Sequence record: OR352945.1
DNA length: 64,000 nucleotides
Origin: Escherichia phage AV115
Strand: one strand, 5' to 3'
Numbering within the stretch: position 1 is the first letter of the stretch; the number at the start of each line of letters is the position of its first letter. Positions 4,339 to 63,798 of this stretch are shown piece after piece. The notes under the pieces are model-generated. The model had not been told where the DNA came from. It was given only the letters and a program-made list of their open reading frames with translations, and did no database searches. The translations under genes were made by a program, and so were the position numbers.

Positions 4339-4360
4339 ATGGGCTATTTCGGTAGCCCAT
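4339..4360 (+). terminator. stem-loop after gene 18
   Basis: ATGGGCTA-tttcgg-TAGCCCAT, 8-bp stem. Confidence 0.5.
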
Positions 4361-4937: not shown

Positions 4938-4953
4938 TGGGGAGAAATCCCCA
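4938..4953 (+). terminator. stem-loop after gene 19
   Basis: TGGGGA-GAAA-TCCCCA, GNRA tetraloop. Confidence 0.45.
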
Positions 4954-10321: not shown

Positions 10322-10350
10322 TGCTTTAACGTTAAAATACATAACCTTAT

Positions 10351-10368
10351 GGGAGACTCCGGTCTCCC
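10351..10368 (+). terminator. intrinsic terminator after gene 23
   Basis: GGGAGAC-tccg-GTCTCCC followed by T-rich tract. Confidence 0.6.
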
Positions 10369-10378
10369 ATTCTTGTTT

Positions 10379-12693: not shown

Positions 12694-12719
12694 AAAAAGG
12701 GACCGTAAGGTCCCTTTTT
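12694..12719. terminator. bidirectional terminator between gene 24 and rnlB
   Basis: A5-GGGACC-gtaa-GGTCCC-T5 between convergent genes. Confidence 0.7.
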
Positions 12720-14294: not shown

Positions 14295-14363
14295 ATTATT
14301 TGGTTTGTGCCATTATACACATCAATCTCAAGTTGTGTTTTGTATGCTTTAAAAACGAAGAAA

Positions 14364-14377
14364 GGGGCCGAAGCCCC
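14364..14377 (-). terminator. stem-loop after hoc
   Basis: GGGGC-cgaa-GCCCC with T-rich run on minus strand. Confidence 0.55.
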
Positions 14378-14383
14378 TTACGA

Positions 14384-15520
14384 TTATGGATATGTATAGA
14401 TGATACCAGTTTCCAAAGCAGTTTTATGGATGACGTATCCATTACGTGATTCTTGAACATCAACTTCTGGATAGTCTTTCATCATCTTCTGAAGAGTGTA
14501 ACGATGCAGGTAGTATTTACTATCTGGATCGTCAATTTTCCAATCTTTACCTTCTTCAGTCATTTTTTGTATTTCATCCATAACCCACCAACCGCACCAG
14601 ATGTAAGCTGAAGTACGATGTGGAAGAGGATGAACATAAGGTAATTCACCTTCTGGTTCCGGAGCAACTTTATCAGTCACTTGAACTTGACCTTCTGCTG
14701 TAATAGTTTTGCTATCATAGTCATCTGCAGTAACGACGGCAGTCACTTCAATAGTTTGACTTCCAACAGATGAAGTATCAACAGTATATACATTAGTTGA
14801 TCCTTCTACTGGAGAAGAATCTTTCTTCCATGAATAAGTAATTTGTGCCGGTTCCGGTGCACCAGTAACATTAGCTGTAAATGTAGCCGAAGCATCTTGT
14901 TGAACATTAATAGAAGGAGGAGTCAATGTAACCCGTGGATTCATTGTCTTCTTATTAACCGTTAATGATACTTCATTCGAAGTAACTTCCTTTGCATCAT
15001 AATCTGTCGCAGTTACTTGGGCTACACATTTAATTCTTTTTACTCCACTTGTAGTTGGAGTATAGCTAAATGTAGAGTTAGTTTCTCCACCAACCTGTGA
15101 ATCATCTACATACCACTGATACGTAGCAGACGCTCCAACCGGTTGAGAAGCTAAGGCGGCAGTAAATTGAACTGTGGTTCCAATTACTCCGGCTGAAGGA
15201 CTATTGGGAGTTACTGCCAACGTAGTCGTTTGTGTCTTGTTTTGAACTGTGATAGTTGTAGAAGCTTCTGCTGTTTCAGCTTCAGCTTCAGCTTCTGGAA
15301 CTGTATTTGTTGCAACTACTTTAATAGTCTTTTGACCGGCAGGTCCTTTTAGTACATAACTAAAAGTTGCTTCAGCTCCATCTTGCGGAACATCATCTAC
15401 AGTCCAAGCATATGTAATAGTTCCGCCTCCAGTTTCACCACCAGGTGTAGCAGTAAACTGCTGAGTCTGATCTATAACTCCAGTAGGTGTTTTAGGAGTT
15501 ATATCAACTGTAAAAGCCAT
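14384..15520 (-). CDS. hoc: highly immunogenic outer capsid protein (Ig-like domains)
   Basis: 378 aa; repeated Ig-like segments (TxTATDYDAKE..), T4 Hoc length and position. Confidence 0.85.
   Translation of the reverse strand: MAFTVDITPKTPTGVIDQTQQFTATPGGETGGGTITYAWTVDDVPQDGAEATFSYVLKGPAGQKTIKVVATNTVPEAEAEAETAEASTTITVQNKTQTTTLAVTPNSPSAGVIGTTVQFTAALASQPVGASATYQWYVDDSQVGGETNSTFSYTPTTSGVKRIKCVAQVTATDYDAKEVTSNEVSLTVNKKTMNPRVTLTPPSINVQQDASATFTANVTGAPEPAQITYSWKKDSSPVEGSTNVYTVDTSSVGSQTIEVTAVVTADDYDSKTITAEGQVQVTDKVAPEPEGELPYVHPLPHRTSAYIWCGWWVMDEIQKMTEEGKDWKIDDPDSKYYLHRYTLQKMMKDYPEVDVQESRNGYVIHKTALETGIIYTYP
15277..15295 (-). repeat. hexanucleotide tandem repeat inside hoc
   Basis: (AGCTTC)x3+ on plus strand, encoding EAEAEAE in Hoc. 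Confidence 0.5.
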
Positions 15521-16248: not shown

Positions 16249-17763
16249 ATGACTGACATTAAAGTACATTTTCATGATTTTAGTCACGTGCGCATTGAAT
16301 GCGACGAAAGTACGTTTTACGAACTTCGTGACTTTTTTAGCTTTGAAGCTGACGGGTATAAATTTAACCCGCGTTACAAATATGGGAACTGGGATGGTAG
16401 AATTCGACTTTTAGATTACAACCGTTTGTTACCATATGGACTTGTAGGACAAATAAAAAAGTTCTGTAGCAATATGAGTTATTCTGTATGGATTGACCCT
16501 AAAATCTTTGAGACCGAAGACCTTACCAGGGAAGATTTTGACGCATGGCTTTCTAAACAAGAAATTTATTCGGGCAACTCCAAAATCGAACCACATTGGT
16601 ATCAAAAAGATGCAGTATATGAAGGACTAGTTAATCGTCGTCGAATTTTAAACCTTCCGACATCAGCAGGTAAATCACTAATCCAAGCACTTTTAGCTCG
16701 GTATTATCTAGAGAACTATGAAGGTAAAATTCTCATTATCGTCCCTACAACAGCATTGACAACCCAGATGGCTAATGATTTTGTTGATTATCGCTTGTTT
16801 AGTCATTCGATGATTAAGAAAATTGGCGGTGGCGCTGATAAAGCAGACAAATCTAAAAACGACGCTCCAATTATTGTTGGCACATGGCAAACGGTAGTTA
16901 AGCAGCCTAAAGAATGGTTCTCTCAGTTCGGTATGATGATGAACGATGAATGCCACTTAGCAACAGGCAAAAGTATTTCTTCAATCATCTCAGGATTAAA
17001 TAATTGCATGTTTAAATTCGGTTTATCTGGCTCATTAAGAGACGGAAAGGCCAATGTAATGCAGTACGTAGGTATGTTCGGCGAAATCTTCCGTCCTGTT
17101 AGCACGTCTAAATTAATGGAAGATGGACAGGTAACTGAGCTTAAGATTAATAGTATTTTCCTTCGTTATCCAGACGAATTCACTGTTAAATTAAAAGGTA
17201 AAACATACCAAGAAGAAGTTAAAATTATTACCGGACTAAAACGTCGTACAAAGTGGATTGCTCAACTTTCAGTCAAATTGGCTAAGAAAGACGAGAACGC
17301 CTTTGTAATGTTTAAACACGTTACACACGGTAAAGAAATATTTGAAGCTATTAAAGAGCTTGGATACGAAAAAGTTTATTACGTATCAGGTGAAGTTGAT
17401 ACCGAAACACGTAACGCGCTTAAAGTCATGGCAGAAAATGGTAAAGGCATTATTATTGTCGCATCATATGGAGTATTCTCTACCGGTATTTCAGTCAAGA
17501 ATCTTCATCATGTTATTTTTGCCCATGGTGTTAAATCAAAAATTATTGTACTTCAAACCGTAGGTCGTGTGCTTCGTAAGCATGGTTCTAAAGCTGTTGC
17601 TACAGTTTGGGATCTCATCGACGATGCAGGTGTAAAACCTAAATCATTAAATACTAAAAAGAAGTATACTCATCTTAATTACTTGTTAAAACACGGTATT
17701 GATCGTATCCAACGTTACGCTGATGAGAAATTTAACTATGTAATGAAAACAATTAATTTATAA
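16249..17763 (+). CDS. uvsW: UvsW DNA/RNA helicase
   Basis: 504 aa; SF2 helicase motifs (DECH, TSAGKS); late promoter at 16212. Confidence 0.95.
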   Translation: MTDIKVHFHDFSHVRIECDESTFYELRDFFSFEADGYKFNPRYKYGNWDGRIRLLDYNRLLPYGLVGQIKKFCSNMSYSVWIDPKIFETEDLTREDFDAWLSKQEIYSGNSKIEPHWYQKDAVYEGLVNRRRILNLPTSAGKSLIQALLARYYLENYEGKILIIVPTTALTTQMANDFVDYRLFSHSMIKKIGGGADKADKSKNDAPIIVGTWQTVVKQPKEWFSQFGMMMNDECHLATGKSISSIISGLNNCMFKFGLSGSLRDGKANVMQYVGMFGEIFRPVSTSKLMEDGQVTELKINSIFLRYPDEFTVKLKGKTYQEEVKIITGLKRRTKWIAQLSVKLAKKDENAFVMFKHVTHGKEIFEAIKELGYEKVYYVSGEVDTETRNALKVMAENGKGIIIVASYGVFSTGISVKNLHHVIFAHGVKSKIIVLQTVGRVLRKHGSKAVATVWDLIDDAGVKPKSLNTKKKYTHLNYLLKHGIDRIQRYADEKFNYVMKTINL

Positions 17764-17777
17764 GGGCTTCGGCCCTT
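17762..17777 (+). terminator. stem-loop after uvsW (UUCG loop)
   Basis: AAGGGC-ttcg-GCCCTT; no strong T-run, may be stability/processing element. Confidence 0.4.
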
Positions 17778-17788
17778 AGGAGATAAAA

Positions 17789-24250: not shown

Positions 24251-25360
24251 ATGATTAGTGTAAAAGAAATAGTAGTAGATGCAAAGGATTTAAATAAAGC
24301 AATCCCAGTCTCAGAAAGTGCTGGGCAAAGCACTAAAACCGAAACAACTACTAAAACTTATGTTGCTCAATTTCCTACAGGAAGAGCAGCCGGAAATGAC
24401 TCCACAGGAGACTTCCAGGTAACAGACCTTTATAAGAATGGATTATTATTTACCGCGTACAATATGTCTGCACGCGATTCAGGATCCCTCAGGAATTTAC
24501 GTCCGGCATATGCCGGGACTTCATCTAATGGTATCATATCAGATTTAACTGATAATGTGAAAGATGCAGTGACTAAATTCTCTAATGGGTTGCTTCCTGC
24601 CGGAGCTAATAAATCTACTATAAATAAAACTCCTGTTGCTAATATCCTTTTGCCGCGTTCCAAATCTGACGTTGATACAACTTCACATCGTTTTAATGAT
24701 ATTGGTGATAGCCTTATTACTAAAGGTGGAGGTACTGCTACGGGCGTTTTAAGTAACATTGCTTCTACTGCAGTTTTTGGTGCATTAGATTCTATTACTC
24801 AAGGGCTTATGGCTGATAATAACGAACAGATTTATACGACTTCTCGTAGTATGTACGGCGGTGCTGAGAACCGTACTAAAGTCTTTACATGGGATTTAAC
24901 TCCACGTTCAACTGAAGACCTTATGGCTATTATAAACATTTACCAGTATTTTAACTATTTCTCATATGGTGAGACCGGTAAATCACAGTACGCCCAAGAG
25001 ATTAAAAGTTATTTAGACGAATGGTACCGTTCAACGTTTATTGAGCCTATGACACCAGACGATGCTGTAAAAAATAAGACATTGTTTGAAAAGATTACTG
25101 CGTCATTAACAAACGTATTAGTTGTAAGCAACCCTACGATTTGGATGGTTAAAAACTTTGGACACACATCTAAATTTGACGGGTTAACTGATGTATTTGG
25201 CCCATGTCAAATTCAAAGCGTACGTTTTGATAAAACTCCAAATGGACAATTTAATGGTCTCGCTGTTGCTCCTAACTTACCGTCAACATTTACGTTAGAG
25301 ATAACAATGCGAGAAATTATTACATTAAACCGTTCTTCACTTTATGCGGGGACTTTCTAA
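24251..25360 (+). CDS. 48: baseplate tail tube junction protein
   Basis: 369 aa; synteny 29-48-54. Confidence 0.9.
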   Translation: MISVKEIVVDAKDLNKAIPVSESAGQSTKTETTTKTYVAQFPTGRAAGNDSTGDFQVTDLYKNGLLFTAYNMSARDSGSLRNLRPAYAGTSSNGIISDLTDNVKDAVTKFSNGLLPAGANKSTINKTPVANILLPRSKSDVDTTSHRFNDIGDSLITKGGGTATGVLSNIASTAVFGALDSITQGLMADNNEQIYTTSRSMYGGAENRTKVFTWDLTPRSTEDLMAIINIYQYFNYFSYGETGKSQYAQEIKSYLDEWYRSTFIEPMTPDDAVKNKTLFEKITASLTNVLVVSNPTIWMVKNFGHTSKFDGLTDVFGPCQIQSVRFDKTPNGQFNGLAVAPNLPSTFTLEITMREIITLNRSSLYAGTF

Positions 25361-26322
25361 TGTACTCTTTAGAAGAATTTAATAACCAAGCTATAAATGC
25401 AGATTTCCAACGAAACAATATGTTTAGTTGTGTATTTGCTACTACGCCATCGACCAAATCGTCTTCACTAATTTCGTCAATTGGTAGTTTTGCTTATAAT
25501 AACTTAGGGTTGGATTCAGATTGGCTAGGATTGACTCAAGGTGATATCAATCAGGGCGTAACAACCCTGATTACAGCAGGAACACAGAAATTAATTCGAA
25601 AATCAGGTGTAAGTAAATATCTGATTGGAGCAATGAGTCAACGTACGGTACAAAGCTTGTTAGGTGAGTTCACAGTAGGAGCTTATCTGATAGACTTCTT
25701 CAATATGGCATATAATAATACAGGTTTAATGATTTATTCTGTAAAAATGCCTGAGAACAGATTATCCTATGAAACGGATTTCAACTATAACTCCCCGAAC
25801 ATCCGAATTACCGGTCGAGAAATGGATCCGTTAGTAATAAGCTTTAGAATGGATTCTGAAGCATCTAACTTTAGAGCAATGCAGGACTGGGTAAACTCAG
25901 TCCAAGACCCTGTAACAGGTCTTCGCGCTTTACCACAAGACGTCGAAGCAGATATTCAGGTTAATTTACATGCACGAAATGGTTTACCACATACCGCTGT
26001 CATGTTCACCGGATGTATTCCTGTTAGTGTCTCTTCTCCTGAGTTAACGTATGATGGTGATAATCAGATAACAGTTTTTGATGTAACATTTGCTTATCGC
26101 GTTATGCAATCAGGTGCTGTAAATAGACAGGCTGCTTTAGAATGGCTGGAATCAGGACTTATTAGTAGTGTTTCAGGAATGTTTGGAAATAATCAGAATG
26201 ATTCTGGACTAGGAAGTGCAGTATCAAGACTTTCTAGATTAGGTGGGACTGCTGGTGGTGTGTCTAATATAAACACATTGACAGGCGTGGTGAATTCTGC
26301 ATCAAGAGTTTTAGGACTATAA
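25360..26322 (+). CDS. 54: baseplate tail tube initiator
   Basis: 320 aa; synteny. Confidence 0.9.
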   Translation: MYSLEEFNNQAINADFQRNNMFSCVFATTPSTKSSSLISSIGSFAYNNLGLDSDWLGLTQGDINQGVTTLITAGTQKLIRKSGVSKYLIGAMSQRTVQSLLGEFTVGAYLIDFFNMAYNNTGLMIYSVKMPENRLSYETDFNYNSPNIRITGREMDPLVISFRMDSEASNFRAMQDWVNSVQDPVTGLRALPQDVEADIQVNLHARNGLPHTAVMFTGCIPVSVSSPELTYDGDNQITVFDVTFAYRVMQSGAVNRQAALEWLESGLISSVSGMFGNNQNDSGLGSAVSRLSRLGGTAGGVSNINTLTGVVNSASRVLGL

Positions 26323-26329
26323 GAAAAAA

Positions 26330-26346
26330 GGGAGACGTTGTCTCCC
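26330..26346. terminator. bidirectional terminator between gene 54 and alt-side operon
   Basis: A-run GGGAGAC-gtt-GTCTCCC T-run between convergent genes. Confidence 0.6.
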
Positions 26347-26355
26347 TTTAGGGGT

Positions 26356-26649
26356 TTATTTACGGAATGAAAGGAATGCTGGTGCTCGGAATGGAGTATC
26401 ATCTTTAGAGTATTTAACTAATACGACCATTGGTACCTCTGTTTCTAAATGACCTGTCACTACACCTATAAAAATTTGGTCGGTGTGCTCAGGGTCACGA
26501 AAGTTTTTAAGAGGTTCCATAGCAATATGGAATGCACCTGGGAATACTCGATTCAATTCGTCAATCACAGCTTCATTAAAAACATCATCTGCCGGAATAA
26601 CATTTTCAACTACTAGTTCTTGACCATTAAAGCGAAGCATAGATTTCAT
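26356..26649 (-). CDS. hypothetical early protein (downstream of alt)
   Basis: Track ORF starts 26721, but early promoter lies inside that extension; SD AGGAAA precedes ATG at 26649 (MKSMLRF...). Confidence 0.45.
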   Translation of the reverse strand: MKSMLRFNGQELVVENVIPADDVFNEAVIDELNRVFPGAFHIAMEPLKNFRDPEHTDQIFIGVVTGHLETEVPMVVLVKYSKDDTPFRAPAFLSFRK

Positions 26650-26678
26650 AACGTTTTCCTCATGTTGTTGATGGGATG

Positions 26679-26708
26679 ATAGTATCACACATCCGTGTGC
26701 TTGTAAAC
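26679..26708 (-). promoter_or_regulatory. early sigma70-type promoter
   Basis: GTTTAC-N18-TACTAT on minus strand, conserved leader CAACAACATGAGGAAA before ATG 26649. Confidence 0.6.
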
Positions 26709-28795
26709 TATCCTTGGACAAATTTAAACGGAACTGATTCTAAATCCATTAAAGATGCTAACAATTTCAATCCTTTAGGAGCACTGTTTATTTCTACGAA
26801 TGAGGCAAAAGATACCGGCTCATCTGATTCAATTTCACCCGTCATAGCAACCACCTCGCCTGTTTCCATGAGAACATCACCATCATAAATGACAGCTTCG
26901 TCCAACTGGTCCGAGGACATGACTTCAGCTTGAATAAATTTAAGGTTGGATTCTAAACCTGCACCAGTGTCAGATGACGCATCTGTAATTTTATTTATCT
27001 GCAAGAGAATGCCTCTAGGCAAAATAATTTCTTGCTCATTAGGGTGATTACTCAACTGTCCTGGATAAACCACGTTAACTTTATGGGCGCCATCAATAGC
27101 CCATCCGACGTTAACACGGATTTGTTCTGGCGCATGCATAGCTGTTCTTACTTGACTAGGAGAAATGGTAACACCTTCGTCATTATTGTCAATGTTAAGC
27201 TCTTTGCGAACTTCTTCAGGAGCAAGTCCAAGGGCAACGTTCTCTTTAAACCCACCGAAAATAATAGGAGCTAGTGAAGTGGAAACATAGTTTCTGAAGT
27301 AGAATACCTTATTTTTAACCATTGCTTCGTAAATAGGCATTCTGATAGACTGAGCTCTATATAACGTTAGTCCTTCAGGTAAACGGTCTCCATTTAAAAA
27401 CGCCGAATCAAGACCATCAATAGCGCGTTTAACTTCATCTTCATCCGCAACATCGTAAAAATCTGGTTTATAACGACCTAACAACATATTATTGATATCG
27501 GTATACGCAGAAGAGGCATATTCACGAATAGCTCGTTTTTCAGCAACAGAGTATTGTTTAGGGTCACGATTCATTGTTATATTAAAGGTGCCTCTAGCCG
27601 ATTCTCGTGCATAAGTATACATCACATTAGACAAGAACGCTGATTTACGTTGTTTCCAAGTTTTTTCAGATACTTCAGCTAAAACGTCGTCAGCCAGTTG
27701 GAAATTATCTCGTCTAAAATCTTCAAACCATTCGTCTCTAATAGAGTCTGCAATTTCATTTGCAGCTTCAACAAAAGCAGCTAATGCTTTAACAGATGTT
27801 GTTTTTTCGGTTTTAATTTTCTTAGCAAACTTTTCTAAAGTTGGCTTAATAACACTACCATAAGAAACTTCATCAGCAAATCTAAAGGATTCATCAATAC
27901 GATTATAAATCTTATTTTCGATATCAGCAACTAAAGTGCCTTTTGCTGTGGACGATGCTTGGGCTAGTACGATTTCATATGCTTCAGGAAGTAATTCGGC
28001 CGTAGCCGGGCCACTAACTTCTTTAGCAGAATTTTCGTATTTCTGGAATAACTCACCTTCTTGGCGGTCAGCTTCTAAAGATTGGCTTGCGGCAATAGCA
28101 CGACGAGAAATTTTAGTACGAGCAATAACAGGCTTATCTTTACGTTTTTCTTCTACAGCAGCAATAGAACCAGCGATAGCCGTTTCTTTGGTGACTTTTT
28201 CGCCGGTCTTTTTACTCACATAAACTTCGCCAACATCAGAATCTACTTTCGTGTACAACTCTGTGTTAATGTTAGGGATGCCTTTAATATCTTCAATGTT
28301 GGCATTTTTACGAACCATCATCACATAGGTGTGTTTACCTGTGAATTGATACATTGCCGACAATACTTTAAAACGACCAGCGGTTTTAGTAGAAACTAAA
28401 CGAGCAAGAAGAGTTTGAAGCTGCTGTCCGCGTCCTTTCAATTTCTTGGTAGGGAATCGGAACAGAACTGCATCCATACGAAGAGCTTTAACCTGTTCAT
28501 ATACTGTATTGAAAATAGTGTTGATTGCATCAATAGGAGCAGGACCAAGGCCATTTTTCAATTCAGCGAGATTACCCTTTTCAGACAGACTCATAATAAC
28601 AACATGAGCGTATTTGTCGCCAAGTTTAACTTGTTTTACAGCATCGCCTTCAGAAAGGTAAGAGAATAAGCGAACTACGATGTTTGTATCGATATCACCA
28701 ATTTTCCAGACTTGTGGAACTTTAGCTTTAGGGTTCAAATTGACGACAGGAAGACTGCCTTCAGATTCAAACACTTCGTTTATTTGTTCAGACAT
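26708..28795 (-). CDS. alt: ADP-ribosyltransferase Alt
   Basis: 695 aa; position between gene 54 and gene 30 and size match T4 Alt. Confidence 0.85.
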   Translation of the reverse strand: MSEQINEVFESEGSLPVVNLNPKAKVPQVWKIGDIDTNIVVRLFSYLSEGDAVKQVKLGDKYAHVVIMSLSEKGNLAELKNGLGPAPIDAINTIFNTVYEQVKALRMDAVLFRFPTKKLKGRGQQLQTLLARLVSTKTAGRFKVLSAMYQFTGKHTYVMMVRKNANIEDIKGIPNINTELYTKVDSDVGEVYVSKKTGEKVTKETAIAGSIAAVEEKRKDKPVIARTKISRRAIAASQSLEADRQEGELFQKYENSAKEVSGPATAELLPEAYEIVLAQASSTAKGTLVADIENKIYNRIDESFRFADEVSYGSVIKPTLEKFAKKIKTEKTTSVKALAAFVEAANEIADSIRDEWFEDFRRDNFQLADDVLAEVSEKTWKQRKSAFLSNVMYTYARESARGTFNITMNRDPKQYSVAEKRAIREYASSAYTDINNMLLGRYKPDFYDVADEDEVKRAIDGLDSAFLNGDRLPEGLTLYRAQSIRMPIYEAMVKNKVFYFRNYVSTSLAPIIFGGFKENVALGLAPEEVRKELNIDNNDEGVTISPSQVRTAMHAPEQIRVNVGWAIDGAHKVNVVYPGQLSNHPNEQEIILPRGILLQINKITDASSDTGAGLESNLKFIQAEVMSSDQLDEAVIYDGDVLMETGEVVAMTGEIESDEPVSFASFVEINSAPKGLKLLASLMDLESVPFKFVQG

Positions 28796-28835
28796 AGTGT
28801 TTTCCTTTTAGTAATAATTTATATTTATGCCAAAA

Positions 28836-28851
28836 AGAGCCCGAAGGCTCT
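28836..28851 (-). terminator. stem-loop upstream of alt
   Basis: GAGCC-cgaa-GGCTC with T-run on minus strand. Confidence 0.5.
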
Positions 28852-29039
28852 TAATCCACAATCGGGAGCAAAGTACGATAAACTTCAAAATTAGGGCCTT
28901 TTTCGTACCCATCAACGTTATCTACGAAAACCCGATACGAATTTTCATTAGGAAAATCTAATATAATCTGAGAGCAAGAGGTGGAAACATCTCCACCATC
29001 CTTCTTAGCTACAATAACTGTTTCTAAATAAGCTTTCAT
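28851..29039 (-). CDS. hypothetical protein
   Basis: Track start is GTG at 29060; first ATG (MKAYLET) at 29039 overlaps ligase stop (TAATG). Confidence 0.35.
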   Translation of the reverse strand: MKAYLETVIVAKKDGGDVSTSCSQIILDFPNENSYRVFVDNVDGYEKGPNFEVYRTLLPIVD

Positions 29040-32772: not shown

Positions 32773-32787
32773 AATATTTTCCTCAAA

Positions 32788-32809
32788 GGAGGCCGAAGCC
32801 TCCTTTTTT
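32788..32809 (+). terminator. plus-strand-oriented intrinsic terminator inside minus-strand gene cluster
   Basis: GGAGGC-cgaa-GCCTCC followed by T6 on plus strand. Confidence 0.5.
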
Positions 32810-32813: not shown

Positions 32814-33179
32814 TTAGATATCGAATTCGTTAAGAACTACATCAAAGATTGCTTCGAGATGTTCAGGTTTAGCTCGGTTACTCAGGATATGACGAATCCA
32901 AGTTTTAACCAGAAGTTTACGATTAACACCGTTCCAGCAAGGATGAGTACCTAAATCACGTTGACGGAAATCATCATCTAATGCAATTTTGAAGTTGGAA
33001 CCTTCCATCATGATTGAAACAGTAATGCCATTTTCAAATCGCATATAAACGTAATTAGGAGTCATATACTGCTCAATTTCACATACTGAACCATTTTTAT
33101 GCTTCCACAAGCAAACCATGTCGATAGAACCAGCGATACCGTTAGAAACATATTTACGTTCGAAGTTGATGTAGTTCAT
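32814..33179 (-). CDS. hypothetical early protein
   Basis: 121 aa; early promoter and hairpin directly upstream. Confidence 0.5.
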   Translation of the reverse strand: MNYINFERKYVSNGIAGSIDMVCLWKHKNGSVCEIEQYMTPNYVYMRFENGITVSIMMEGSNFKIALDDDFRQRDLGTHPCWNGVNRKLLVKTWIRHILSNRAKPEHLEAIFDVVLNEFDI

Positions 33180-33220: not shown

Positions 33221-33249
33221 ATAGTAACACATCCTACAGGAGAGTAAAC
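33221..33249 (-). promoter_or_regulatory. early sigma70-type promoter
   Basis: GTTTAC-N17-TACTATAGAC on minus strand, preceded by hairpin 33286-33303. Confidence 0.6.
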
Positions 33250-33285: not shown

Positions 33286-33303
33286 GGGAGACCGAAGTCT
33301 CCC
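33286..33303 (-). terminator. stem-loop GGGAGACCGAAGTCTCCC (copy 1)
   Basis: Perfect 7-bp stem, CGAA loop, T-run on minus strand; precedes early promoter. Confidence 0.55.
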
Positions 33304-33308: not shown

Positions 33309-33488
33309 TTATGCAACAACCTTTCCAAAACGAGAAGCATCATCTCGAAGAACTGCACGTGCTCTGCGCATGATCTTCTCAACGGTTTGATTAATACGAG
33401 AGTTCGACCCACGCTTGTATCCAGCGCGTTTAGAGGTACCATCAACTTTCTTTTCAACTGCTTTCTTTGCTTTAGCTTGTTTTGCCAT
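33309..33488 (-). CDS. small basic protein (59 aa)
   Basis: ORF not in track (59 aa): MAKQAKAKKAVEKK...; followed by hairpin terminator at 33286-33303. Confidence 0.4.
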   Translation of the reverse strand: MAKQAKAKKAVEKKVDGTSKRAGYKRGSNSRINQTVEKIMRRARAVLRDDASRFGKVVA

Positions 33489-41834: not shown

Positions 41835-41848
41835 GGGACCGAAGTCCC
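41835..41848 (-). terminator. stem-loop between nrdB and denA
   Basis: GGGAC-cgaa-GTCCC immediately upstream of denA start. Confidence 0.4.
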
Positions 41849-41852: not shown

Positions 41853-42355
41853 TTAGAAATATTTTTTGTATGAATTGATTACATTTTGGTCTACATCATT
41901 ATCAATTTGTGCGACAAGATAAGAACTGATTTCAACTTCCTGAGGAGCTGCTTGAACTAAATCAGAGTTCAGATATTCACGAATCCAAGGATAAGGATGT
42001 TTGGTCGGAGCATCAGTAATTGGACACGGCAAACCACACTGTTTCATACGAGACACAGTCAAGTAATCAACAAAAGCACACATACTCTGTGTATTGATAC
42101 CTGGACATGTACCGTCTTTAAAGAGGTGTGCAGCCCATTCCTTCTCTTGACTATTTACTTCCATAAAAATGTCAACTGCTTCTTGTTCACATTCTTTAGC
42201 AATTTGAACCCACTCATCACCATCAGTACCGGATTGAAGTTGACGGATAATGTACTGAGTACCCTTGAGATGGAGTTGTTCGTCACGAGCAATGAACTTC
42301 ATAATCTTTGCATTGCCTTCCATAATTTCCATATTCTTATGGAAATTAAATGTAC
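41853..42355 (-). CDS. nrdB: ribonucleotide reductase small subunit, exon 2
   Basis: C-terminal NrdB (MEGNAKI..., ARDE..H iron ligands); exon start inferred at 42355 to restore conserved FAC(T)F junction. Confidence 0.8.
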
Positions 42356-42947
42356 CGTTATGTTCGATTGAGCTCGCTAATTCTCAACCCGTTCTCTTAT
42401 GAACTGCTGCATATTACTATGCAGACCAGACTATATCACAATCCCGGAGGGATTCTCCCCATTTCGAGTCGCTTGACCCTACGTCCGAAGACTAGTCGTT
42501 GAACCTTGCTTTGCAATTGTCGCCGTGCCATCGTTTATATGTCGATGGTGATAAATCTTTCTTTTCACAATATGGACAATTCAATTGAATTCTATTTGGA
42601 TTTAATTTGCATCTGTCATTATGTTTTAGATAAAACCCAGGACCTTTACCAATGTGACCGCAGAAATCACATGTGATTTCTTTTTGTGCAGGATGGGTTC
42701 CGTTCTTAACCATTTCTAATGTTTTTGCTGATGTTCTTCCATCAGAATCTTTAGGTATAGGCCCGTTAGCATCCATCCAAATTTTTCTATAATTCAATTG
42801 TGCATCCTCTTAAAAGTATAATCATATTTATTTTATAATATACTAATTAAAGGTGCAAGCAAAACCTTGGCTGCTAGTTTTCCTATAAAGGACTTTCCAG
42901 CAATTAAAGGAGTTTTCGATAAACGTTACCGTTTAAAGGCGCATTTT
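42356..42947 (-). mobile_element. group I self-splicing intron in nrdB
   Basis: ~592 nt interrupting conserved NrdB sequence between YVSFA and MEGNAKI; 5' exon ends in U, intron ends in G; boundaries approximate. Confidence 0.75.
42492..42797 (-). pseudogene. I-TevIII-like homing endonuclease remnant (intron ORF)
   Basis: 101 aa ORF inside intron with TTG start; CxxC...CxxC zinc-finger-like region but no HNH catalytic motif. Confidence 0.5.
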
Positions 42948-43623
42948 ACGCAAAAGATACATAAAAACGAATAGCTTCCAATGCATTGATGACATGCAAA
43001 CAAAGATAAAGAGATTTCATTAGGTCTCGTTTAGCTTCGGTCTCTTGTTTAATAGCTCGGTTTAAACGAAGGTCGGCATCAGGAGATTCTTTAGCTTGTT
43101 CTACAAATTCTTTAGCATTTTCCCAATTACGAGTCTTGACTAGAACATCATCATAATATTTACCTATTGATTCAGCTCGTTTCATGATTGCTTCGTCTAA
43201 TACAATCTCATCAAATACTTTGGATGGATCGGTATAAAGATTTCGCATAATATGAGTATACGAACGAGAGTGAATAGTTTCACTGAATGTCCATGTTGCA
43301 ACCCACGTATCTAATGAAGGGTCGGAAAGCAGTGCCATAAGTACCGCAGATGGGGCCCTGCCTTGGATAGAATCTAATAATGATTGATACTTAAGGTTGT
43401 TTGTAAAGATGTCCTGTTGGAACTGAGGAAGCTTATTGAACTGGGCCGAATCCAGCATCAGGTTTACTTCTTCTGGTCGCCAGAAAAACGACAATTGCTT
43501 TTCAATAAGTTCTTCAAAAACTTTATGTCGCTGAATATCATAACGTGCGAGGCCAAGACCAGAACCAAAGAACATTGGTTCATTCAAAACATCGACTTGT
43601 TGTGTGTTAAAAACTGTACTCAT
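42948..43623 (-). CDS. nrdB: ribonucleotide reductase small subunit, exon 1
   Basis: N-terminal NrdB (...EAIRFYVSFA); in-frame stop lies within intron. Confidence 0.85.
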
Positions 43624-43678: not shown

Positions 43679-45943
43679 TTAAAGCTTACAAGCAGAACAA
43701 TCTTCAGCTTTAGGTGTTTCTAATTCATAGTCATCTGTACCTGACCCATCACGAGTGTTATGATAGTAGAGGTTTTTTCCGCCAAAGTACCAGAAGTAAA
43801 GCAGATCGTCAAGCATTACTGACATTGGCACTTTACCTTTCTCAAATACTGCAGGGTCATAGTAAGTATTAGCAGAAGCAGATTGGCACACCCATTTCAA
43901 CATGATAGCAACTTGGGTCAAATAAGGTTTATTACCTTTCTTAGCAAGTTTCCACGCGTAGTCGTAAAGACTCATGTTATGTTCTATATTAGGAACAACC
44001 TGTCGGAAGTTGCCTTCTTTAGATTCTTTAATACTTACAGGTCCACGAGGTGGTTCTATACCATTTGTGCTATTTGAGACTTGACTGCTTGACTCACAAG
44101 GCATGAGTGCAGACAACGTTGAGTTACGAATTCCATGTTCTTTGAGTTCAGCTCGAAGTTCTTCCCAGTCACAGACATAGTTCGGGGCTGCGATTTGGTC
44201 AATCTTTTTATTGTACCAGTCGATAGGTAATTCGCCTCTAGACCATTTAGTGTCTGAATAATACTCACAAGGTCCTTTTTCTTTGGCGAGTTTGATTGAT
44301 GCTTTGATAAGGCCATATTGCAATCTCTCGAACAATTCATGGGTCAAATCGTTAGCGTCTTCATATGAAGCAAAGTTAGAAGCTAACCATGCAGCATAGT
44401 TCGTCACACCAACACCGAGATTTCGACGCTTTTTAGCTTTTAAAGCTTCTGGAACCGGATAATCTTGATAGTCTAACAGGTTATCAAGTGCACGTACTTG
44501 TACTTCAGCAAGTTCATTAATTTTATCTTGGTCTTGCCAATCAAATTTATCTAATACAAAAGCAGATAATGTGCATAAACCAATTTCAGCATCAGGACCA
44601 TTCACATCATTAGTTGGAATAGCGATTTCACAACATAAGTTACTCTGACGAATTGGAGCTTTTTCACGAATAAACGGAGTGTAGTTATTCGTGTTATCAA
44701 CAAACTGTGGATAAATTCGAGCAGTGCCAGAACGTTCAGTCATGAACAATTCAAAGAGTTCTAGTGCTTTGATTCTTTTCTTTCTGATTGTTGGGTCTTT
44801 TTCAGCTTTCTCATAAAGCTCACGGAATTTATCTTGATCTTCAAAGAACGAGTAGTATAGTTCACCTGACATTTCGTGAGGGCTAAATAAAGTAATATAA
44901 TCATTTTTACCAAGGCGTTCCATCATAAGGTCATTAATCTGAATTCCGTAGTCCATATGTCGAATACGGTTTTCATCCACGCCTTTGTTATTTTTCAGAA
45001 CTAATAGGTTCTCTACTTCTAAGTGCCACATCGGATAATACGCTGTAGCAGCACCACCACGAATACCACCTTGAGAACAAGATTTTACTGCAGTTTGGAA
45101 ATGTTTCCAGAATGGAATAACACCTGTATGTCGAACTTCACCCGTACCGATCTTAGAACCTTCTGCACGAAGCATACCAACGTTGATACCGATACCAGCT
45201 CGTTTAGAAATATATTCAATAATTGATGCTGAAGTTTTGTTAATAGATTTTAACGAATCACCTGCTTCAATAACTACACAACTAGAGAACTGGCGAGTTG
45301 GAGTACGAGCACCTGCCATAATTGGGGTTGGCAATGAAACTTGATGAGTAGAAACGGCATCATAAAAACGAATAATATGTTTCAAACGGTCATGAGTTTC
45401 GTCTTGGTGTAAGGCCATGCCAATAGCCATGATAGCAAACTGGGGAGTTTCATAAATCTTCCCAGTTGTTTTATCTTTAACTAGATATTTTTCTTTAAGC
45501 TGCATAGCACCAGCATAAGTCAGGTCAAAGTCTCGTTCATGTTTAATCTGTGAATCGAGATAAATGATTTCTTCTGCTGAATATTGAGACAACAGCTCAG
45601 GGTCATATTTGCCTTCATTAACACAGTAAGAAATATGGTCTATAAAAGCAGGCGGTTCAAACTGCCCATATACATCTTTACGAAGTGCAAACATTAGCCC
45701 TTTGGCGGCGACATACTGATAATCAGGTTCTTCGACAGAAATCAAGTTAGCTGCAACTTTAATACAAATCTTCTGAATATCTTTGGTGCTCATCCCGTCG
45801 ACAAGATGGGTCTTAATTTCTTCATACAATTCGTATGGGTCGATTTGTGTTCCTTCACACTGCCAAGTTAATACTTGAATAATTTTCTGTGCATCAAAAT
45901 TTTGGGATACACCTGAATTTTTCACTACTTTAAAATTATACAT
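43679..45943 (-). CDS. nrdA: ribonucleotide reductase large subunit
   Basis: 754 aa; close to T4 NrdA; C-terminal CxxC. Confidence 0.97.
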   Translation of the reverse strand: MYNFKVVKNSGVSQNFDAQKIIQVLTWQCEGTQIDPYELYEEIKTHLVDGMSTKDIQKICIKVAANLISVEEPDYQYVAAKGLMFALRKDVYGQFEPPAFIDHISYCVNEGKYDPELLSQYSAEEIIYLDSQIKHERDFDLTYAGAMQLKEKYLVKDKTTGKIYETPQFAIMAIGMALHQDETHDRLKHIIRFYDAVSTHQVSLPTPIMAGARTPTRQFSSCVVIEAGDSLKSINKTSASIIEYISKRAGIGINVGMLRAEGSKIGTGEVRHTGVIPFWKHFQTAVKSCSQGGIRGGAATAYYPMWHLEVENLLVLKNNKGVDENRIRHMDYGIQINDLMMERLGKNDYITLFSPHEMSGELYYSFFEDQDKFRELYEKAEKDPTIRKKRIKALELFELFMTERSGTARIYPQFVDNTNNYTPFIREKAPIRQSNLCCEIAIPTNDVNGPDAEIGLCTLSAFVLDKFDWQDQDKINELAEVQVRALDNLLDYQDYPVPEALKAKKRRNLGVGVTNYAAWLASNFASYEDANDLTHELFERLQYGLIKASIKLAKEKGPCEYYSDTKWSRGELPIDWYNKKIDQIAAPNYVCDWEELRAELKEHGIRNSTLSALMPCESSSQVSNSTNGIEPPRGPVSIKESKEGNFRQVVPNIEHNMSLYDYAWKLAKKGNKPYLTQVAIMLKWVCQSASANTYYDPAVFEKGKVPMSVMLDDLLYFWYFGGKNLYYHNTRDGSGTDDYELETPKAEDCSACKL

Positions 45944-46571
45944 AATAATTCCATGTTGGATAATTTGATGATTTTAGACGGCGTCTAACCGTTTGGGTGC
46001 TCATAGATAAAATTATTGACGCTTCATTTAATGTATCATATATTACGTCGTTTATAATTACTTTCTTTGCAAATGGATTCTTAGCTCCTATCATAGCGTT
46101 AGAAATAGCTTGCTTAGTTGATTCTTTTAATGGGACTCCTTTAGAAATTTTTGTTTTAATTTTTATATTGTATTGTCCGCGTTTTTTACCTAATAAAGAA
46201 TTTCGTATCTTTTCTTTAGTCTCTTCAGATTTAACATGTCCTAGTTTGGAACGAGATATTTTATCTTTTGTTTTTTGGTCTAATTTTCGCCCTTTAAGCA
46301 AATCAACCATTTTTGCTCTAGCCCATCCAAATTCTTTATTATTTCTAGAACTCATTAAATTAACCGCGGTTGCTAAACCTAAATTGTTCGGATATATTTT
46401 TAATAAAAGAAGATGAGCCAAATAATGTTCTGAATATGTTAATTTAACTAGATTGTATGACTCATTGGTGCCACCTAAACATTTTGGGATTATATGATGC
46501 CATTCACCATCGATATCTTCAAAATTTCTTTCTTTATTTACTAAGTTTTTATATATTTTTAAATAATCCAT
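45936..46571 (-). CDS. HNH homing endonuclease (MobE-like)
   Basis: HNH motif EWHHIIPKCLGG...NLV; repeated K-rich NUMOD-like segments; track start GTG 46583, ATG at 46571; 3' end overlaps nrdA start. Confidence 0.8.
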   Translation of the reverse strand: MDYLKIYKNLVNKERNFEDIDGEWHHIIPKCLGGTNESYNLVKLTYSEHYLAHLLLLKIYPNNLGLATAVNLMSSRNNKEFGWARAKMVDLLKGRKLDQKTKDKISRSKLGHVKSEETKEKIRNSLLGKKRGQYNIKIKTKISKGVPLKESTKQAISNAMIGAKNPFAKKVIINDVIYDTLNEASIILSMSTQTVRRRLKSSNYPTWNYYV

Positions 46572-46646
46572 AGTATAATCCACTTTGTAGTATCAACGGG
46601 ATAGTATTTATCCCGTTAATTTATTATACACTTTTAAACTGAAGCG

Positions 46647-46902: not shown

Positions 46903-47214
46903 TTATACCGCCATTTTAGCTTTGATAGCTGGATGTGATTCGTAATTTTTAAGAACGAAATCAGAATGTGTCATCGTTCCGGTAACCCAGTCCATTTGGA
47001 TTTTTGTAGGCCAATTCTCAAAATTACTAGGCCAATTAATTTCAAGAGAACATAACTCTTTAGGTTCATGACGAAGAACTTCTTTGCATTGTTCTACATG
47101 ATTGCTGTAGATATGCGTGTTGCCGCCTGAGAACACTAAATCACCTGGGATAAGGTTACACATCTTCGCTACAATATGTGTCAAGGCAGCGTACGAGGCG
47201 ATGTTGAACGGTAG
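46903..47214 (-). CDS. td: thymidylate synthase, exon 2
   Basis: C-terminal TS (LPFNIASYA...); track ATG at 47215-47217 is the last 3 nt of the intron (cataATG|CTACCG). Confidence 0.93.
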   Translation of the reverse strand, partial: LPFNIASYAALTHIVAKMCNLIPGDLVFSGGNTHIYSNHVEQCKEVLRHEPKELCSLEINWPSNFENWPTKIQMDWVTGTMTHSDFVLKNYESHPAIKAKMAV

Positions 47215-48230
47215 CATTATGTTCAGATAAGGTCGTTAATCTTATCCCGGAATTATATCCAGCTGCATGTCACCATGCAGAGCAGACTATATCTCCAACT
47301 TGTTAAAGCAAGTTGTCTATCGTTTCGAGTCACTTGACCCTACTCCCTAAAGGGATAGTCGTTAGGCATTTATGTAGAACCAATTCCACTTATCAGATTT
47401 TACACGGTAAGTAACTAATCCTGATGAAATTTCAAAATGTCTAGCCGCATCGGCTGCACATTCAAAAATAATCCCATCGCATGAAATCTTTTTGATGTTA
47501 GCTGGCTTTTTGCCTTTCATCTTTTCAGATAGTTTAGTTTTAGTTTTTTCTGAATGTTTGTGATTAAAGAACGGGTTATTTTCACCTGAACGTTTTCGGC
47601 ACTTTCCACAAGTATCGGCCGAAGATGGTATGCGAACACCGCATTTACAAAACTTGTGGTTTTCTGGATTCCATCGGCCATTTTTACTTCCGTGTTTACC
47701 ATAAAGAGCTTTCCGACCATCAGGACCAAGCTTAAGCATCTTAGCTTTAACAGTTTCAGCTCGTTTCTTAGCAATTTCTTCTTTTAATGGATGATTTGAA
47801 AGCACATCGCCAAAAGACGCATCAGCAATATTATATCCATTAATTTTAGAATTTAGCTCTTTAATCCAAAAATTTTCTCGTTCAATAATCAAATCTTTCT
47901 CATATGGAATTTCTTCCAGTATAGAGCATTCAAAAACATTACCATGTTTATTAAAAGACCTTTGAAATTTTATAGAAGAGTGAACACCGTTTTCAAGGTC
48001 TTTAAAATGTCTCTTCCATCTTTTCTCAAAATCTTTAGCACTTCCAACATACACTTTACCGTTTAAAGTGTTTTTAATCTGATAAATTCCGCTTTTCATA
48101 AACACCTCTTTTTATATAGAAGTATTTATTAAAGGGTAGTCCTACAATTTAGCACGGGATTGTCTACTAGAGAGGTCCCCCGTTTAGATAGATTACAAGT
48201 ATAAGTCACCTTATACCTAGGCCTAAATTA
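47215..48230 (-). mobile_element. group I self-splicing intron in td
   Basis: 1016 nt; 5' and 3' intron sequences as I recall the T4 td intron; exon 1 ends ...GGT. Confidence 0.93.
47362..48099 (-). CDS. I-TevI: intron-encoded GIY-YIG homing endonuclease I-TevI
   Basis: 245 aa from ATG 48099 (track GTG start at 48105); MKSGIYQIKNT...; GIY-YIG plus zinc finger. Confidence 0.97.
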   Translation of the reverse strand: MKSGIYQIKNTLNGKVYVGSAKDFEKRWKRHFKDLENGVHSSIKFQRSFNKHGNVFECSILEEIPYEKDLIIERENFWIKELNSKINGYNIADASFGDVLSNHPLKEEIAKKRAETVKAKMLKLGPDGRKALYGKHGSKNGRWNPENHKFCKCGVRIPSSADTCGKCRKRSGENNPFFNHKHSEKTKTKLSEKMKGKKPANIKKISCDGIIFECAADAARHFEISSGLVTYRVKSDKWNWFYINA

Positions 48231-48779
48231 ACCTAAGAAAACATCTACACTGCGTTGATACCATTGTAAATCAAGATGACCATTACGCACATTGAACTGA
48301 TAGAACATATGGCAAGGAGGAAGAGCCATTTGATTTATTTCAGCCGGATTCCAGGCAGAAACAATTTGACGACGATCAGTTGGTAATTTTTTAATACGGT
48401 CGATTGTTTCAACTAATTGGTCTACACCACCAAAATCACGCCATTGCTTACCATAAATAGGACCAAGTTCGCCGCTATGATATCCAAGGTCTTTTGCCTG
48501 ATTTTCATAGTTGTCGTCCCAAATAGTTTTACCTTGAATAAGACTACCATGAGTACGAATACGCAAATCATTAACATTGGTAGAACCAGACATGAACCAC
48601 AGTAACTCGGCAATACAAGCTTTCCATGCTAATTTCTTAGTTGTTACTGCAGGAAATCCTTTAGTAAGGTCCCAACGTAATTTAGTTCCGAACAGGGCAA
48701 TAGTGCCGGTACCTGTACGGTCGTCTGTTTCGTAGCCATTTTCTAAGATATCTTTAATCAGGTATTGGTATTGTTTCAT
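48231..48779 (-). CDS. td: thymidylate synthase, exon 1
   Basis: N-terminal TS with active-site region PPCH; 183 codons. Confidence 0.95.
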
Positions 48780-49677: not shown

Positions 49678-50070
49678 CTACTTTTTAAAAGTTTTTTGCA
49701 AAAGTTTGATGATTTCGTCGACGTTGGTTTCATCTACGATACAATGGATTTTTGTTACACCTAAAGTTATACCTTCGTTAGTAGGTTGAGGCTTTACTAA
49801 ATCTACTTCAATAAAGTATTTGAACTCGTCAGGATAAATCTCGAAATAAGTTTCAATTTCACCACCGGCAGAACATACAGTACCGTCTTCCATAGTTACA
49901 CTTACTACGTTTGACGTATCGCTATCATAATCAGGTTCCATTCCGTTTACAACAAAACTAGGCCCATGGAGTTCAATCAATTTTAACATCTTAGCGTTAT
50001 TGTGTGGTGCTTCTTGAACAAAGTCGTCTTTAAATAAAGGGTTAATGATATAAGATTTTCCGATTTCCAT
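49678..50070 (-). CDS. hypothetical early protein
   Basis: 130 aa; SD GAGGAA and early promoter upstream. Confidence 0.5.
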   Translation of the reverse strand: MEIGKSYIINPLFKDDFVQEAPHNNAKMLKLIELHGPSFVVNGMEPDYDSDTSNVVSVTMEDGTVCSAGGEIETYFEIYPDEFKYFIEVDLVKPQPTNEGITLGVTKIHCIVDETNVDEIIKLLQKTFKK

Positions 50071-50099: not shown

Positions 50100-50128
50100 A
50101 TACTAACACATCCAGGTAAGAAGTAAAC
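50100..50128 (-). promoter_or_regulatory. early sigma70-type promoter
   Basis: GTTTAC-N17-TAGTATAGAC on minus strand, preceded by hairpin 50160-50177; leader CAACAACATGAGGAAA. Confidence 0.6.
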
Positions 50129-50159: not shown

Positions 50160-50177
50160 GGGAGACCGAAGTCTCCC
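50160..50177 (-). terminator. stem-loop GGGAGACCGAAGTCTCCC (copy 2), after gene 32
   Basis: Identical 18-nt hairpin, T-run on minus strand, followed by early promoter. Confidence 0.6.
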
Positions 50178-50183: not shown

Positions 50184-51083
50184 TTATAGACCAGCTAACA
50201 GGTCATCGAGGTCACCATCGTCAGAAGACGAGGAACTCATGAAGTCATCTTCAGTTTTTGCAGAACCAAAGGCTTCCATGTCTTTATCAAAATCGTCAAG
50301 GTCAGAAGCAACTTTATCTGCAACAGAAGCTGCTGCGGCTGCTGCACCACCAAGAGCGGCAGTACCAAGAACTTGATTAAATTTAGTATTCAATTCTTCA
50401 AACGATTTGAACTTATCTTTAGAAGTCATTTCAGAAAGGTCGACCATTTGTTCGAACAATTCTTTCTGGAAAGATTCATCATCAATGTTTGGAATCGCAG
50501 ATTGATTCAGGAATTTAGATTCGTCGTAGTTACTGAAACCAGAAACCTGTTTAACTTTCAGCACAAAGTTAGCACCTTCCCACGGGCAAGTTACATCAAC
50601 AGGAGTTTCACCCATTTCAGTATCGACTGCAATCATTGCATTGATTTTGTCCCAAATCTTTTTACCGAAACGATATTTGAATACTTTACCTTCATTATCT
50701 GGAGCTTGAGGGTCTTTAACAACCAGAATATTAGCCCAATAAGAAGTTTTACGTTTCAGTTGAGAATATTCAGTTTTGTTGGTATTGTACAGGTCATTTT
50801 TACTAATGTACTGACATACAGGACAAGAGTCATAATCGCCGTGTGTAGATGAACAGGTTTCAATATACCATTTACCATTTTTCTTGAACCCGTGGTTAAC
50901 AAGAATTGTAAACGGAAGTGCGTCATCTGTTTTTGCCGGCAGGAAACGAATTACCGCTTGACCATTACCGGATGCATCGAGTTTCAGCTTCCATTCACCT
51001 TTATCTTCTGAAGAGAAACCTTTGTTACCATTCAGTTTAGCCATCTGAGCTGCGAGGTCTGCGGTACTTTTACGTTTAAACAT
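50184..51083 (-). CDS. 32: single-stranded DNA-binding protein
   Basis: 299 aa; near-identical to T4 gp32 (zinc site, acidic C-terminal tail). Confidence 0.97.
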
Positions 51084-59157: not shown

Positions 59158-59175
59158 GGGAGACCGAAGTCTCCC
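59158..59175 (+). terminator. stem-loop GGGAGACCGAAGTCTCCC (copy 3), after gene 35
   Basis: Identical 18-nt hairpin followed by ATTTTTG, then late promoter. Confidence 0.6.
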
Positions 59176-59182
59176 ATTTTTG

Positions 59183-59190
59183 TATAAATA
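59183..59190 (+). promoter_or_regulatory. late promoter TATAAATA (gene 36)
   Basis: Exact TATAAATA ~25 nt before gene 36 ATG, after gene 35 terminator. Confidence 0.7.
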
Positions 59191-63780: not shown

Positions 63781-63798
63781 AGAGGGCTTCGGCCCTCT
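63781..63798 (+). terminator. stem-loop between genes 37 and 38
   Basis: AGAGGGC-ttcg-GCCCTCT immediately after gene 37 stop, before gene 38 SD. Confidence 0.45.

Follow-up and report, generated by a model that had tools for sequence, protein, structure and literature searches.

Identical copies of an 18-nt hairpin, GGGAGACCGAAGTCTCCC, lie at widely separated gene ends in the DNA of Escherichia phage AV115 (sequence record OR352945.1), and they raise two questions: what such a hairpin does, and how its copies came to be identical. An earlier note on this DNA had suggested that the hairpins could be terminators, RNA stability elements or recombination sites, and had read their identity as a sign of copying by recombination rather than of convergence. 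We analysed the whole 64,000-nt stretch, here called the window. We conclude, with a probability of about 0.85, that the 18-mer is a Rho-independent terminator combined with a 3'-end-protecting hairpin of the cUUCGg type, placed at several gene ends of an RB69-like phage. The identity of the copies is addressed further below.

Five hairpins with one stem

By its gene content and similarity, the window reads as the first 64 kb of a Mosigvirus, an RB69-like relative of T4. The 2.5-kb stretch around the second copy (50160) is 99.8% identical to Escherichia phage AV116, a Mosigvirus (Straboviridae, Tevenvirinae), with hundreds of further T4-family hits, and the coordinates of the AV116 record and of the window run almost in register from base 1, the small terminase gene. 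The gene order is 16-17-18-19-20...23, 24, uvsW, baseplate genes, alt, 30, 30.x, rIII and 31, followed by cd, pseT, nrd, td, frd, 32, 59, 33, dsbA, rnh and 34-37. Thymidylate synthase (46903-48779) and nrdB (41853-43623) each appear to be split by an endonuclease ORF (47362-48105 and 42492-42797, respectively), reminiscent of the T4 group I introns. Despite these apparent splits, an Rfam gathering search of the window reported no group I intron; it matched no family anywhere in the window.

An exact-match search recovered three copies of GGGAGACCGAAGTCTCCC on the plus strand, at 33286-33303, 50160-50177 and 59158-59175, as the earlier note had listed them, and its gene contexts (50160 after gene 32, 59158 after gene 35, 33286 in a minus-strand setting) are right as well. 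Chance as the source of the three copies can be ruled out, with 0 matches in 100 dinucleotide-preserving shuffles and 0 expected. Upon allowing mismatches we found a fourth site with the same stem at 10351-10368, where a single loop mismatch gives UCCG on the plus strand, and a scan for perfect stems added a fifth at 26330-26346, with the 7-bp stem and a 3-base loop, GTT. GGGAGAC and GTCTCCC each occur five times as 7-mers in the window, always inside these five hairpins, and a search of the complete 168-kb AV116 genome returned the same five sites and no others. The sites, referred to as A to E, and their adjoining features are:

33286..33303, minus strand: hairpin A, GGGAGAC-UUCG-GUCUCCC, in both MFE and centroid fold, in 147 phage records
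33281..33285, minus strand: U-tract UUUUG directly 3' of hairpin A
33221..33249, minus strand: T4-type early promoter after hairpin A (-35 GTTTAC 33249-33244, -10 TACTAT 33226-33221)
50160..50177, minus strand: hairpin B, GGGAGAC-UUCG-GUCUCCC, in both MFE and centroid fold, in 152 phage records
50155..50159, minus strand: U-tract UUUUG directly 3' of hairpin B
50100..50128, minus strand: T4-type early promoter after hairpin B (-35 GTTTAC 50128-50123, -10 TAGTAT 50105-50100)
50184-51083, minus strand: gp32
58025-59152, plus strand: gp35
59158..59175, plus strand: hairpin C, sense RNA GGGAGAC-CGAA-GUCUCCC, between the gene 35 stop (59150-59152) and the gene 36 start (59215)
59176..59182, plus strand: U-tract AUUUUUG 3' of hairpin C
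59183..59190, plus strand: T4 late promoter motif TATAAATA ahead of gene 36, conserved in orthologues
59215-59877, plus strand: gp36
10349..10370, plus strand: hairpin D, AUGGGAGAC-UCCG-GUCUCCCAU followed by UCUUGUUUCU, fold z = -4.35
26327..26349, no strand assigned: hairpin E, AAAGGGAGAC-GUU-GUCUCCCUUU, predicted bidirectional terminator

The copies are identical as plus-strand DNA, and in that sense the claim of identity stands; as RNA it does not, the loop being UUCG at 33286 and 50160 and CGAA at 59158. The genes at 33286 and 50160 are on the minus strand, and the RNA at both is therefore GGGAGAC-UUCG-GUCUCCC followed by UUUUG.

Sites A and B share one layout, in which the hairpin is followed after ~30 nt by an early promoter (GTTTAC, 17 nt, TACTAT/TAGTAT), a Shine-Dalgarno sequence and the next start codon. 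Hairpin A begins 5 nt past the stop codon (33309-33311) of a gp30.9-like ORF (33309-33488), and the promoter beyond it drives a gene 30.7 homologue (32814-33179); hairpin B begins 6 nt past the gene 32 stop codon (50184-50186), and its promoter drives a Frd2-like ORF (49678-50070). The 51-nt context of hairpin A occurs in 147 phage records, RB69 among them. Previous annotators had already marked such places: the 2004 GenBank record of phage TuIa gives a stem_loop, -35, -10 and RBS at the equivalent of 33286, and the record of phage G2469 labels the gene 32 hairpin 'putative transcriptional terminator, -16.10'. The combination of stem-loop, sigma-70-like early promoter, Shine-Dalgarno sequence and start codon that is known as PeSL was found at A and B only; C adjoins a late promoter, and D and E have no early promoter next to them. 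An extended early-promoter consensus running into the leader, TACTAT AGACCTATCAACAACATGAGGAAA, is shared on the minus strand by 11338-11366, 26679-26707 and 50100-50128, and several loci thus repeat a unit of promoter, 5' UTR and Shine-Dalgarno sequence.

The remaining same-stem sites lie at meeting points of opposed genes. Hairpin D follows gene 23, which encodes the major capsid protein (stop codon 10319-10321), with segD converging from the other side, and the corresponding position in relatives has a UUCG loop. The segD-like gene (10379-11038) is one of further homing-endonuclease genes in the AV116 annotation, another being 45936-46583 beside nrdA; as it sits beside the gene 23 terminator, hairpin D therefore marks a junction between a core gene and a mobile gene. 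Hairpin E lies between the convergent gene 54 (25360-26322, plus strand) and an ORF at 26356-26721 on the minus strand.

The same stem is used by five of the ~14 hairpins of the window. The others, which the earlier note had put at about ten in intergenic places, are the nine below, and its count is reached when the same-stem sites 10351 and 26330 are added to them:

4339..4360, plus strand: AUGGGCUA-UUUCGG-UAGCCCAU, between genes 18 and 19
4938..4953, plus strand: GAAA-loop hairpin after gene 19, without a T-run
12694..12719, no strand assigned: AAAAAGGGACC-GUAA-GGUCCCUUUUU, bidirectional GNRA loop between convergent gene 24 and RNA ligase gene (12722-13720)
14362..14379, minus strand: AAGGGGC-UUCG-GCCCCUU, after ORF 14384-15520
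17761..17778, plus strand: UAAGGGC-UUCG-GCCCUUA, end of uvsW
28835..28852, minus strand: AAGAGCC-UUCG-GGCUCUU, upstream of alt
32785..32806, minus strand: AAAGGAGGC-UUCG-GCCUCCUUU, a different stem, after the gene 30.7 homologue; stem_loop at the equivalent place in TuIa
41835..41848, minus strand: GGGAC-UUCG-GUCCC
63781..63798, plus strand: AGAGGGC-UUCG-GCCCUCU, after gene 37, without a T-run

ORF 14384-15520, which by its position we take to be the counterpart of T4 hoc, is annotated in AV116 as 'capsid and scaffold protein'. The hairpin at 4339-4360 overlaps the late-promoter motif TATAAATA and has no T-run; its layout, hairpin and then late promoter, is that seen at genes 35/36. A conserved terminator 'upstream of alt' is among those given for T4-like phages in PMC1524935.

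Anatomy, conservation and proposed function

The 18-mer forms a perfect 7-bp stem with 5 G-C pairs and a 4-nt loop, with a predicted RNA folding energy of -12.0 kcal/mol for the UUCG form and -11.1 kcal/mol for the CGAA form, within a span of -11.1 to -13.0 kcal/mol for the tetraloop forms. In native context, the hairpin is the dominant local structure and appears in both the MFE and the centroid fold at all sites; the in-context fold z-scores are modest at A (-2.3) and B (-1.1). The features expected of an intrinsic terminator are present, namely a G+C-rich stem with a short loop, a 3' U-tract, and a place past the stop codon in the sense orientation. A UUCG loop closed by C-G in the RNA, the mark of the cUUCGg class, is found at A and B and is replaced at C (CGAA) and D (UCCG), and A and B are accordingly classed here as predicted classic cUUCGg intrinsic terminators. 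The U-tracts are short, at 4-5 U, and a consensus terminator scanner flagged B and C and missed A. Generic terminator-like hits between 26 and 45 kb were not enriched (11 vs 12.3 +/- 3.6 in shuffles), and we set the generic scan aside as evidence, since it missed site A and does not discriminate in an A+T-rich genome.

The hairpins are strongly oriented with respect to transcription. Among window hairpins with a UUCG or CGAA loop, 9/10 carry UUCG in the mRNA sense, the exception being 59158; where genes converge, runs of A and of T flank the hairpin on either side. Beyond the window, the exact 18-mer was seen in 104 distinct IMG/VR contexts among the matches listed, of which 90 carried five or more T within the 8 nt that follow the UUCG orientation; a T-run confined to the CGAA side was seen in 2.

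T4-like phages keep the position of these hairpins and vary the stem sequence. A strong hairpin with a T-run was found after gene 23, after gene 32 and upstream of gene 36 in all T4-like loci listed except one (L130, without a hairpin after gene 32). After gene 32 the stems are GGGAGAC, GGAGCC, GGGACC, GGAACC or GGCUACUC, with a 5-base-loop form, GGGGACC-CUAGA, in the closest T4-type contigs; before gene 36 they are GGGAGCC, GGAACC, GGACC, GGGCC-GAAA or GGGAGAC; and a dozen variants occur after gene 23, the stems across these conserved sites including GGGAACC and GGGCC. Among 30 different sequences taken from the sites after gene 23 and gene 32, both partners vary in 6/7 stem pairs, the C-G pair that closes the loop never changes, and the covariation score is 0.717 vs 0.221 +/- 0.026 for shuffles, in a set whose hairpins were chosen as the best stem per site, which inflates the percentage paired. 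With that same choice of best stems, structure is conserved over sequence, as is expected of an intrinsic terminator. These results agree with PMC1524935, in which terminators are predicted after gene 23 and between genes 35/36 in 6/6 T4-like genomes and after gene 32 in 5/6 of the genomes compared.

The suggestion that the hairpins are terminators or RNA stability elements is thus upheld, by the U-tract after the stop codon, by the conserved position with a covarying stem and by the GenBank annotation. A terminator after T4 gene 32 and the unusual stability of the gene 32 mRNA were described in the 1980s. From the observed anatomy, strand bias, positional conservation with covarying stems and recurrence in unrelated phages, we infer actual termination and RNA stabilisation at these hairpins. 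Following the established mechanism, the 7-bp stem, with the very stable C(UUCG)G loop as its cap, would fold in the exit channel of E. coli RNA polymerase, the weak rU:dA hybrid at the U-tract would then release the transcript, and 3'-to-5' exonucleases should be slowed by the hairpin that now ends the RNA. The hairpins at 33286 and 50160, which follow gene 30.9 and gene 32 respectively, would each end an early or middle transcription unit, and the early promoter ~30 nt beyond would restart transcription, as in the PeSL layout; the gene 23 site (10351) and the convergent-gene site 26330 would put the same stem to use. In a lacZ reporter, a PeSL stem-loop terminated as well as rrnB T1 (PMC2839356). 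Neither a Term-seq study of T4-like phages nor a paper devoted to the gene 32 terminator turned up in the literature searched.

Loop inversions and the role of site C

Hairpin C differs from A and B in its loop and in its setting. It begins 5 nt past the gene 35 stop codon, and in the record of phage SA79RD the gene 35/36 site carries two features, a rho-independent terminator and, after it, a T4 late promoter. One IMG/VR contig (L207) has the same flanks as the window around 59158 with the loop TTCG instead. Upon counting the loop at this site in 137 phage records, with 49-nt queries that match only when the loop matches, we obtained TTCG in 131 and CGAA in 6, the latter being AV109, AV114, AV116, AV118 and G2285, together with Klebsiella phage EI from a different phage group. 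In most relatives all three sites (33286, 50160 and 59158) give the same RNA. As judged from these comparisons, the plus-strand identity of the third copy is the product of a 4-base loop inversion in this phage.

Loop inversion is not confined to site C. At site A the loop (33293-33296) is UUCG in the sense orientation in 147/150 records and inverted in 3 (TH58, AlbertHofmann and JM10), and at site B it is UUCG in 152/152 records, with no inversion among them. TH58 is inverted at the gene 30.9 site and not at the gene 35/36 site, and inversions therefore look recurrent and independent for each site. At hairpin E the loop (26337-26339) is GTT in the window and its reverse complement, AAC, in the near-identical AV116; phage records with the same left flank divide into 13 GTT and 15 AAC. 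Hairpin E thus carries a roughly balanced inversion polymorphism at what we predict to be a bidirectional terminator. Inversion of the loop at perfect hairpins is a documented result of template switching during replication (PMC8794818; PMC8604942).

The hairpins could instead be mainly RNA processing or stability elements, that is, barriers to 3' exonucleases or folding insulators between cistrons, with little termination, especially at C and in the members that have no U-tract. This would fit the hairpins at 4938 and 63781, which lack a T-run, the location of site C within the co-expressed tail-fibre cluster directly ahead of a promoter, and the occurrence of the CGAA loop in five Escherichia phages and in Klebsiella phage EI, six records that represent two phage groups. 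A pure stability element, however, has no need of the T-run that follows the UUCG side in 90/104 of the listed 18-mer contexts, and the A-runs and T-runs on either side of convergent-gene sites also count against the stability reading; as an account of the whole family we consider this reading unlikely. For parts of the family it is the likely one: site C, given its co-expressed cluster and its tolerance of the inverted loop, is likely to act mainly in RNA stabilisation or attenuation, and a similar role is likely for the members without a T-run. At site C the hairpin directly ahead of the late promoter would probably attenuate late transcription without stopping it fully, because genes 34-38 need to be co-expressed.

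The inversions also show that the DNA, or a replication intermediate, forms the hairpin. Together with the stem being a perfect inverted repeat, this might speak for a palindrome that works as DNA, whether by binding a dimeric protein, by forming a cruciform or by signalling recombination or replication. A symmetric DNA site, however, needs neither a loop orientation nor a T-run, both of which are strongly strand-biased with respect to transcription, and the stems covary freely at orthologous sites, so that no fixed sequence can be what is recognised. Because orientation matters and stem sequence varies freely, we hold a role at the DNA level to be highly improbable, and termination combined with 3'-end protection remains our reading of the 18-mer.

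Origin of the shared stem and likeness to known elements

The proposal that the copies arose by recombination rather than by convergence finds no support in the window, where the copies share no flanks, occupy fixed sites, consist of an 18-mer that is common elsewhere and owe the plus-strand match of the third copy to a loop inversion. Comparing +/-110 nt around the sites in both orientations, we found only the 4-5 base T-run in common beyond the hairpin, and not the extended flank similarity expected of copies. The A and B promoters are not unusually alike: with the -10 element as anchor, their identity over 100 nt is 47%, all pairs of the ten early promoters averaging 41.5 +/- 5%, and the A-B pair ranks 5/45; the promoter and leader of site B are nearer those at 26679 and 11338 than those of site A. 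An extended repeat or cassette around the 18-mer was rejected on these grounds. A dispersed mobile repeat of REP or MITE type was likewise not seen, with no flank similarity around the copies and the same five sites in AV116. Recent copying is ruled out by the fixation of each site in ~150 Mosigvirus genomes.

The 18-mer is also widespread. The exact sequence occurs in at least 120 IMG/VR viral contigs from many environments, mostly in unrelated contexts, with 104 distinct flanks among the matches listed. Since it turns up in so many, mostly unrelated contigs, nearly always followed by a T-run, identity alone is no proof of copying. A control stem with permuted purines, GGAGAGC-UUCG, likewise gave at least 120 IMG/VR matches, and uniqueness of this particular 18-mer is thereby ruled out; a control that breaks the purine run, GGCAGAC-UUCG, was rarer, with 23 matches. 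The counts thus point to a favoured class, with an all-purine 5' arm, G-C pairs beside the U-tract and a C-G pair closing the UUCG loop. We attribute the identity of the copies mainly to a narrow optimum, in which a GGG/CCC base abuts the U-tract, the 5' arm is all purine and the UUCG loop is closed by C-G, with occasional short-patch copying between terminators as a likely secondary contributor.

The rival to this view is a paralogous origin. In that account one hairpin, or a hairpin-plus-promoter cassette (PeSL), spread by recombination, gene conversion or template switching, and the repeats would be points of cassette shuffling. Such an account bears on where the copies came from and on a secondary role, and does not conflict with a function as terminators. 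Several observations lean towards it. One stem recurs at five of the window's hairpins though orthologous sites elsewhere tolerate many stems, and A and B have the layout of PeSLs, which recombine in RB49/phi1 (PMC2839356). In three T4-like IMG/VR genomes a stretch of 34 bases, AAGGAGCCTTCGGGCTCCTTTTGTTGTTTCTGGA, is identical between the terminator of gene 23 and that of gene 32, which suggests copying between terminators in that T4-like lineage. The stretch reaches 14 nt beyond the hairpin (loci L239/L136, L238/L138 and L278/L137; contigs 2706796299, 2974573174 and 2974556567). Furthermore, stem cores were common to sites of one genome in 10/26 cases vs 3.8 +/- 1.8 upon permutation (P ~0.004), in a test on 14 distinct genome types with hand-read cores in which shared ancestry was only partly removed, a weakness that counts against the account. 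Against it stand also the absence of flank similarity in the window beyond the T-run, the ordinary likeness of the A and B promoters, the fixation of each junction in ~150 Mosigvirus genomes, the distance of ~800 bp from site B to the nearest indel relative to G2469 (at 49367), and the abundance of the 18-mer and its purine-permuted version, each in at least 120 viral contigs, so that independent origin is common. We regard paralogy of the window's copies as a possibility of less than even odds, and give much the same or slightly less weight to an occasional homogenisation of terminators in T4-like phages, which is plausible.

A broader version, which we put forward tentatively and with a little more doubt than either, is that terminators of T4-family phages evolve in concert: short-patch conversion or template switching during replication would carry one stem to several terminators of the same genome and flip loops where they stand, with selection keeping the sense UUCG at one-way sites (147:3, 152:0 and 131:6) and being indifferent at the bidirectional one (13:15). 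If this were true, the ~150 sequenced Mosigvirus genomes would form a natural experiment on the share of the cUUCGg loop in termination and RNA stability. The loop inversions and the signs of stem homogenisation could also serve to gauge how much the UUCG loop is worth in fitness and how fast template-switch mutations arise in phage genomes. For annotation, the hairpins are of use in delimiting the transcription units of gene 23, gene 32, genes 35/36 and genes 30.9/30.7.

Overall, these hairpins are a known kind of element in a known place, at sites that public records already mark as terminators or stem-loops; the polymorphic loop inversions and the hints that terminators evolve in concert may be the sole new parts, and modest ones. 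Hairpins of the cUUCGg type at gene ends were first described in T4; PMC3972237, citing Tuerk et al. 1988, gives UUCG hairpins as a feature of T4 mRNA and of rho-independent terminators. Nolan et al. 2006 (PMC1524935) analysed RB69, the reference Mosigvirus, which carries the site A sequence; the consulted portion of that paper gives positions only, with no mention of a shared sequence or of loop inversion. Like the T4 C(UUCG)G hairpins (Tuerk et al. 1988 PNAS 85:1364; d'Aubenton Carafa et al. 1990), as far as PMC3972237 relays them, those of the window have a C-G-closed UUCG loop on a short G+C-rich stem, are intercistronic in a T4-family phage and are followed by a U-tract; unlike them, the window mRNA has CGAA at 59158 and UCCG at 10351.

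Sites A and B resemble PeSLs (Arbiol et al. 2010, PMC2839356; Comeau et al. 2014, PMC4122927) in their succession of stem-loop, TTTAC, 17 nt, TAYWAT, Shine-Dalgarno sequence and start, with the stem upstream of the promoter as in the PST/T4-type PeSL, the stem being GGGAGAC and not AGNA...TCNT. Copies of a PeSL are conserved over ~100 bp, which lets them recombine with one another, whereas A and B are no more alike than any two early promoters may be; and PeSLs lie beside indels or replacements, whereas the A and B junctions are stable across ~150 genomes, with their 50-nt junctions conserved in 147-152 phage records, and C, D and E have no early promoter. Finally, sites A, C and E resemble spacer inversion by template switching (PMC8794818; PMC8604942), in that a 3-4 base loop is reverse-complemented while the flanks are unchanged in close relatives; unlike the cases described there, the inversions lie in phage terminators, with few at the one-way UUCG sites and a ratio of ~1:1 at the bidirectional one.
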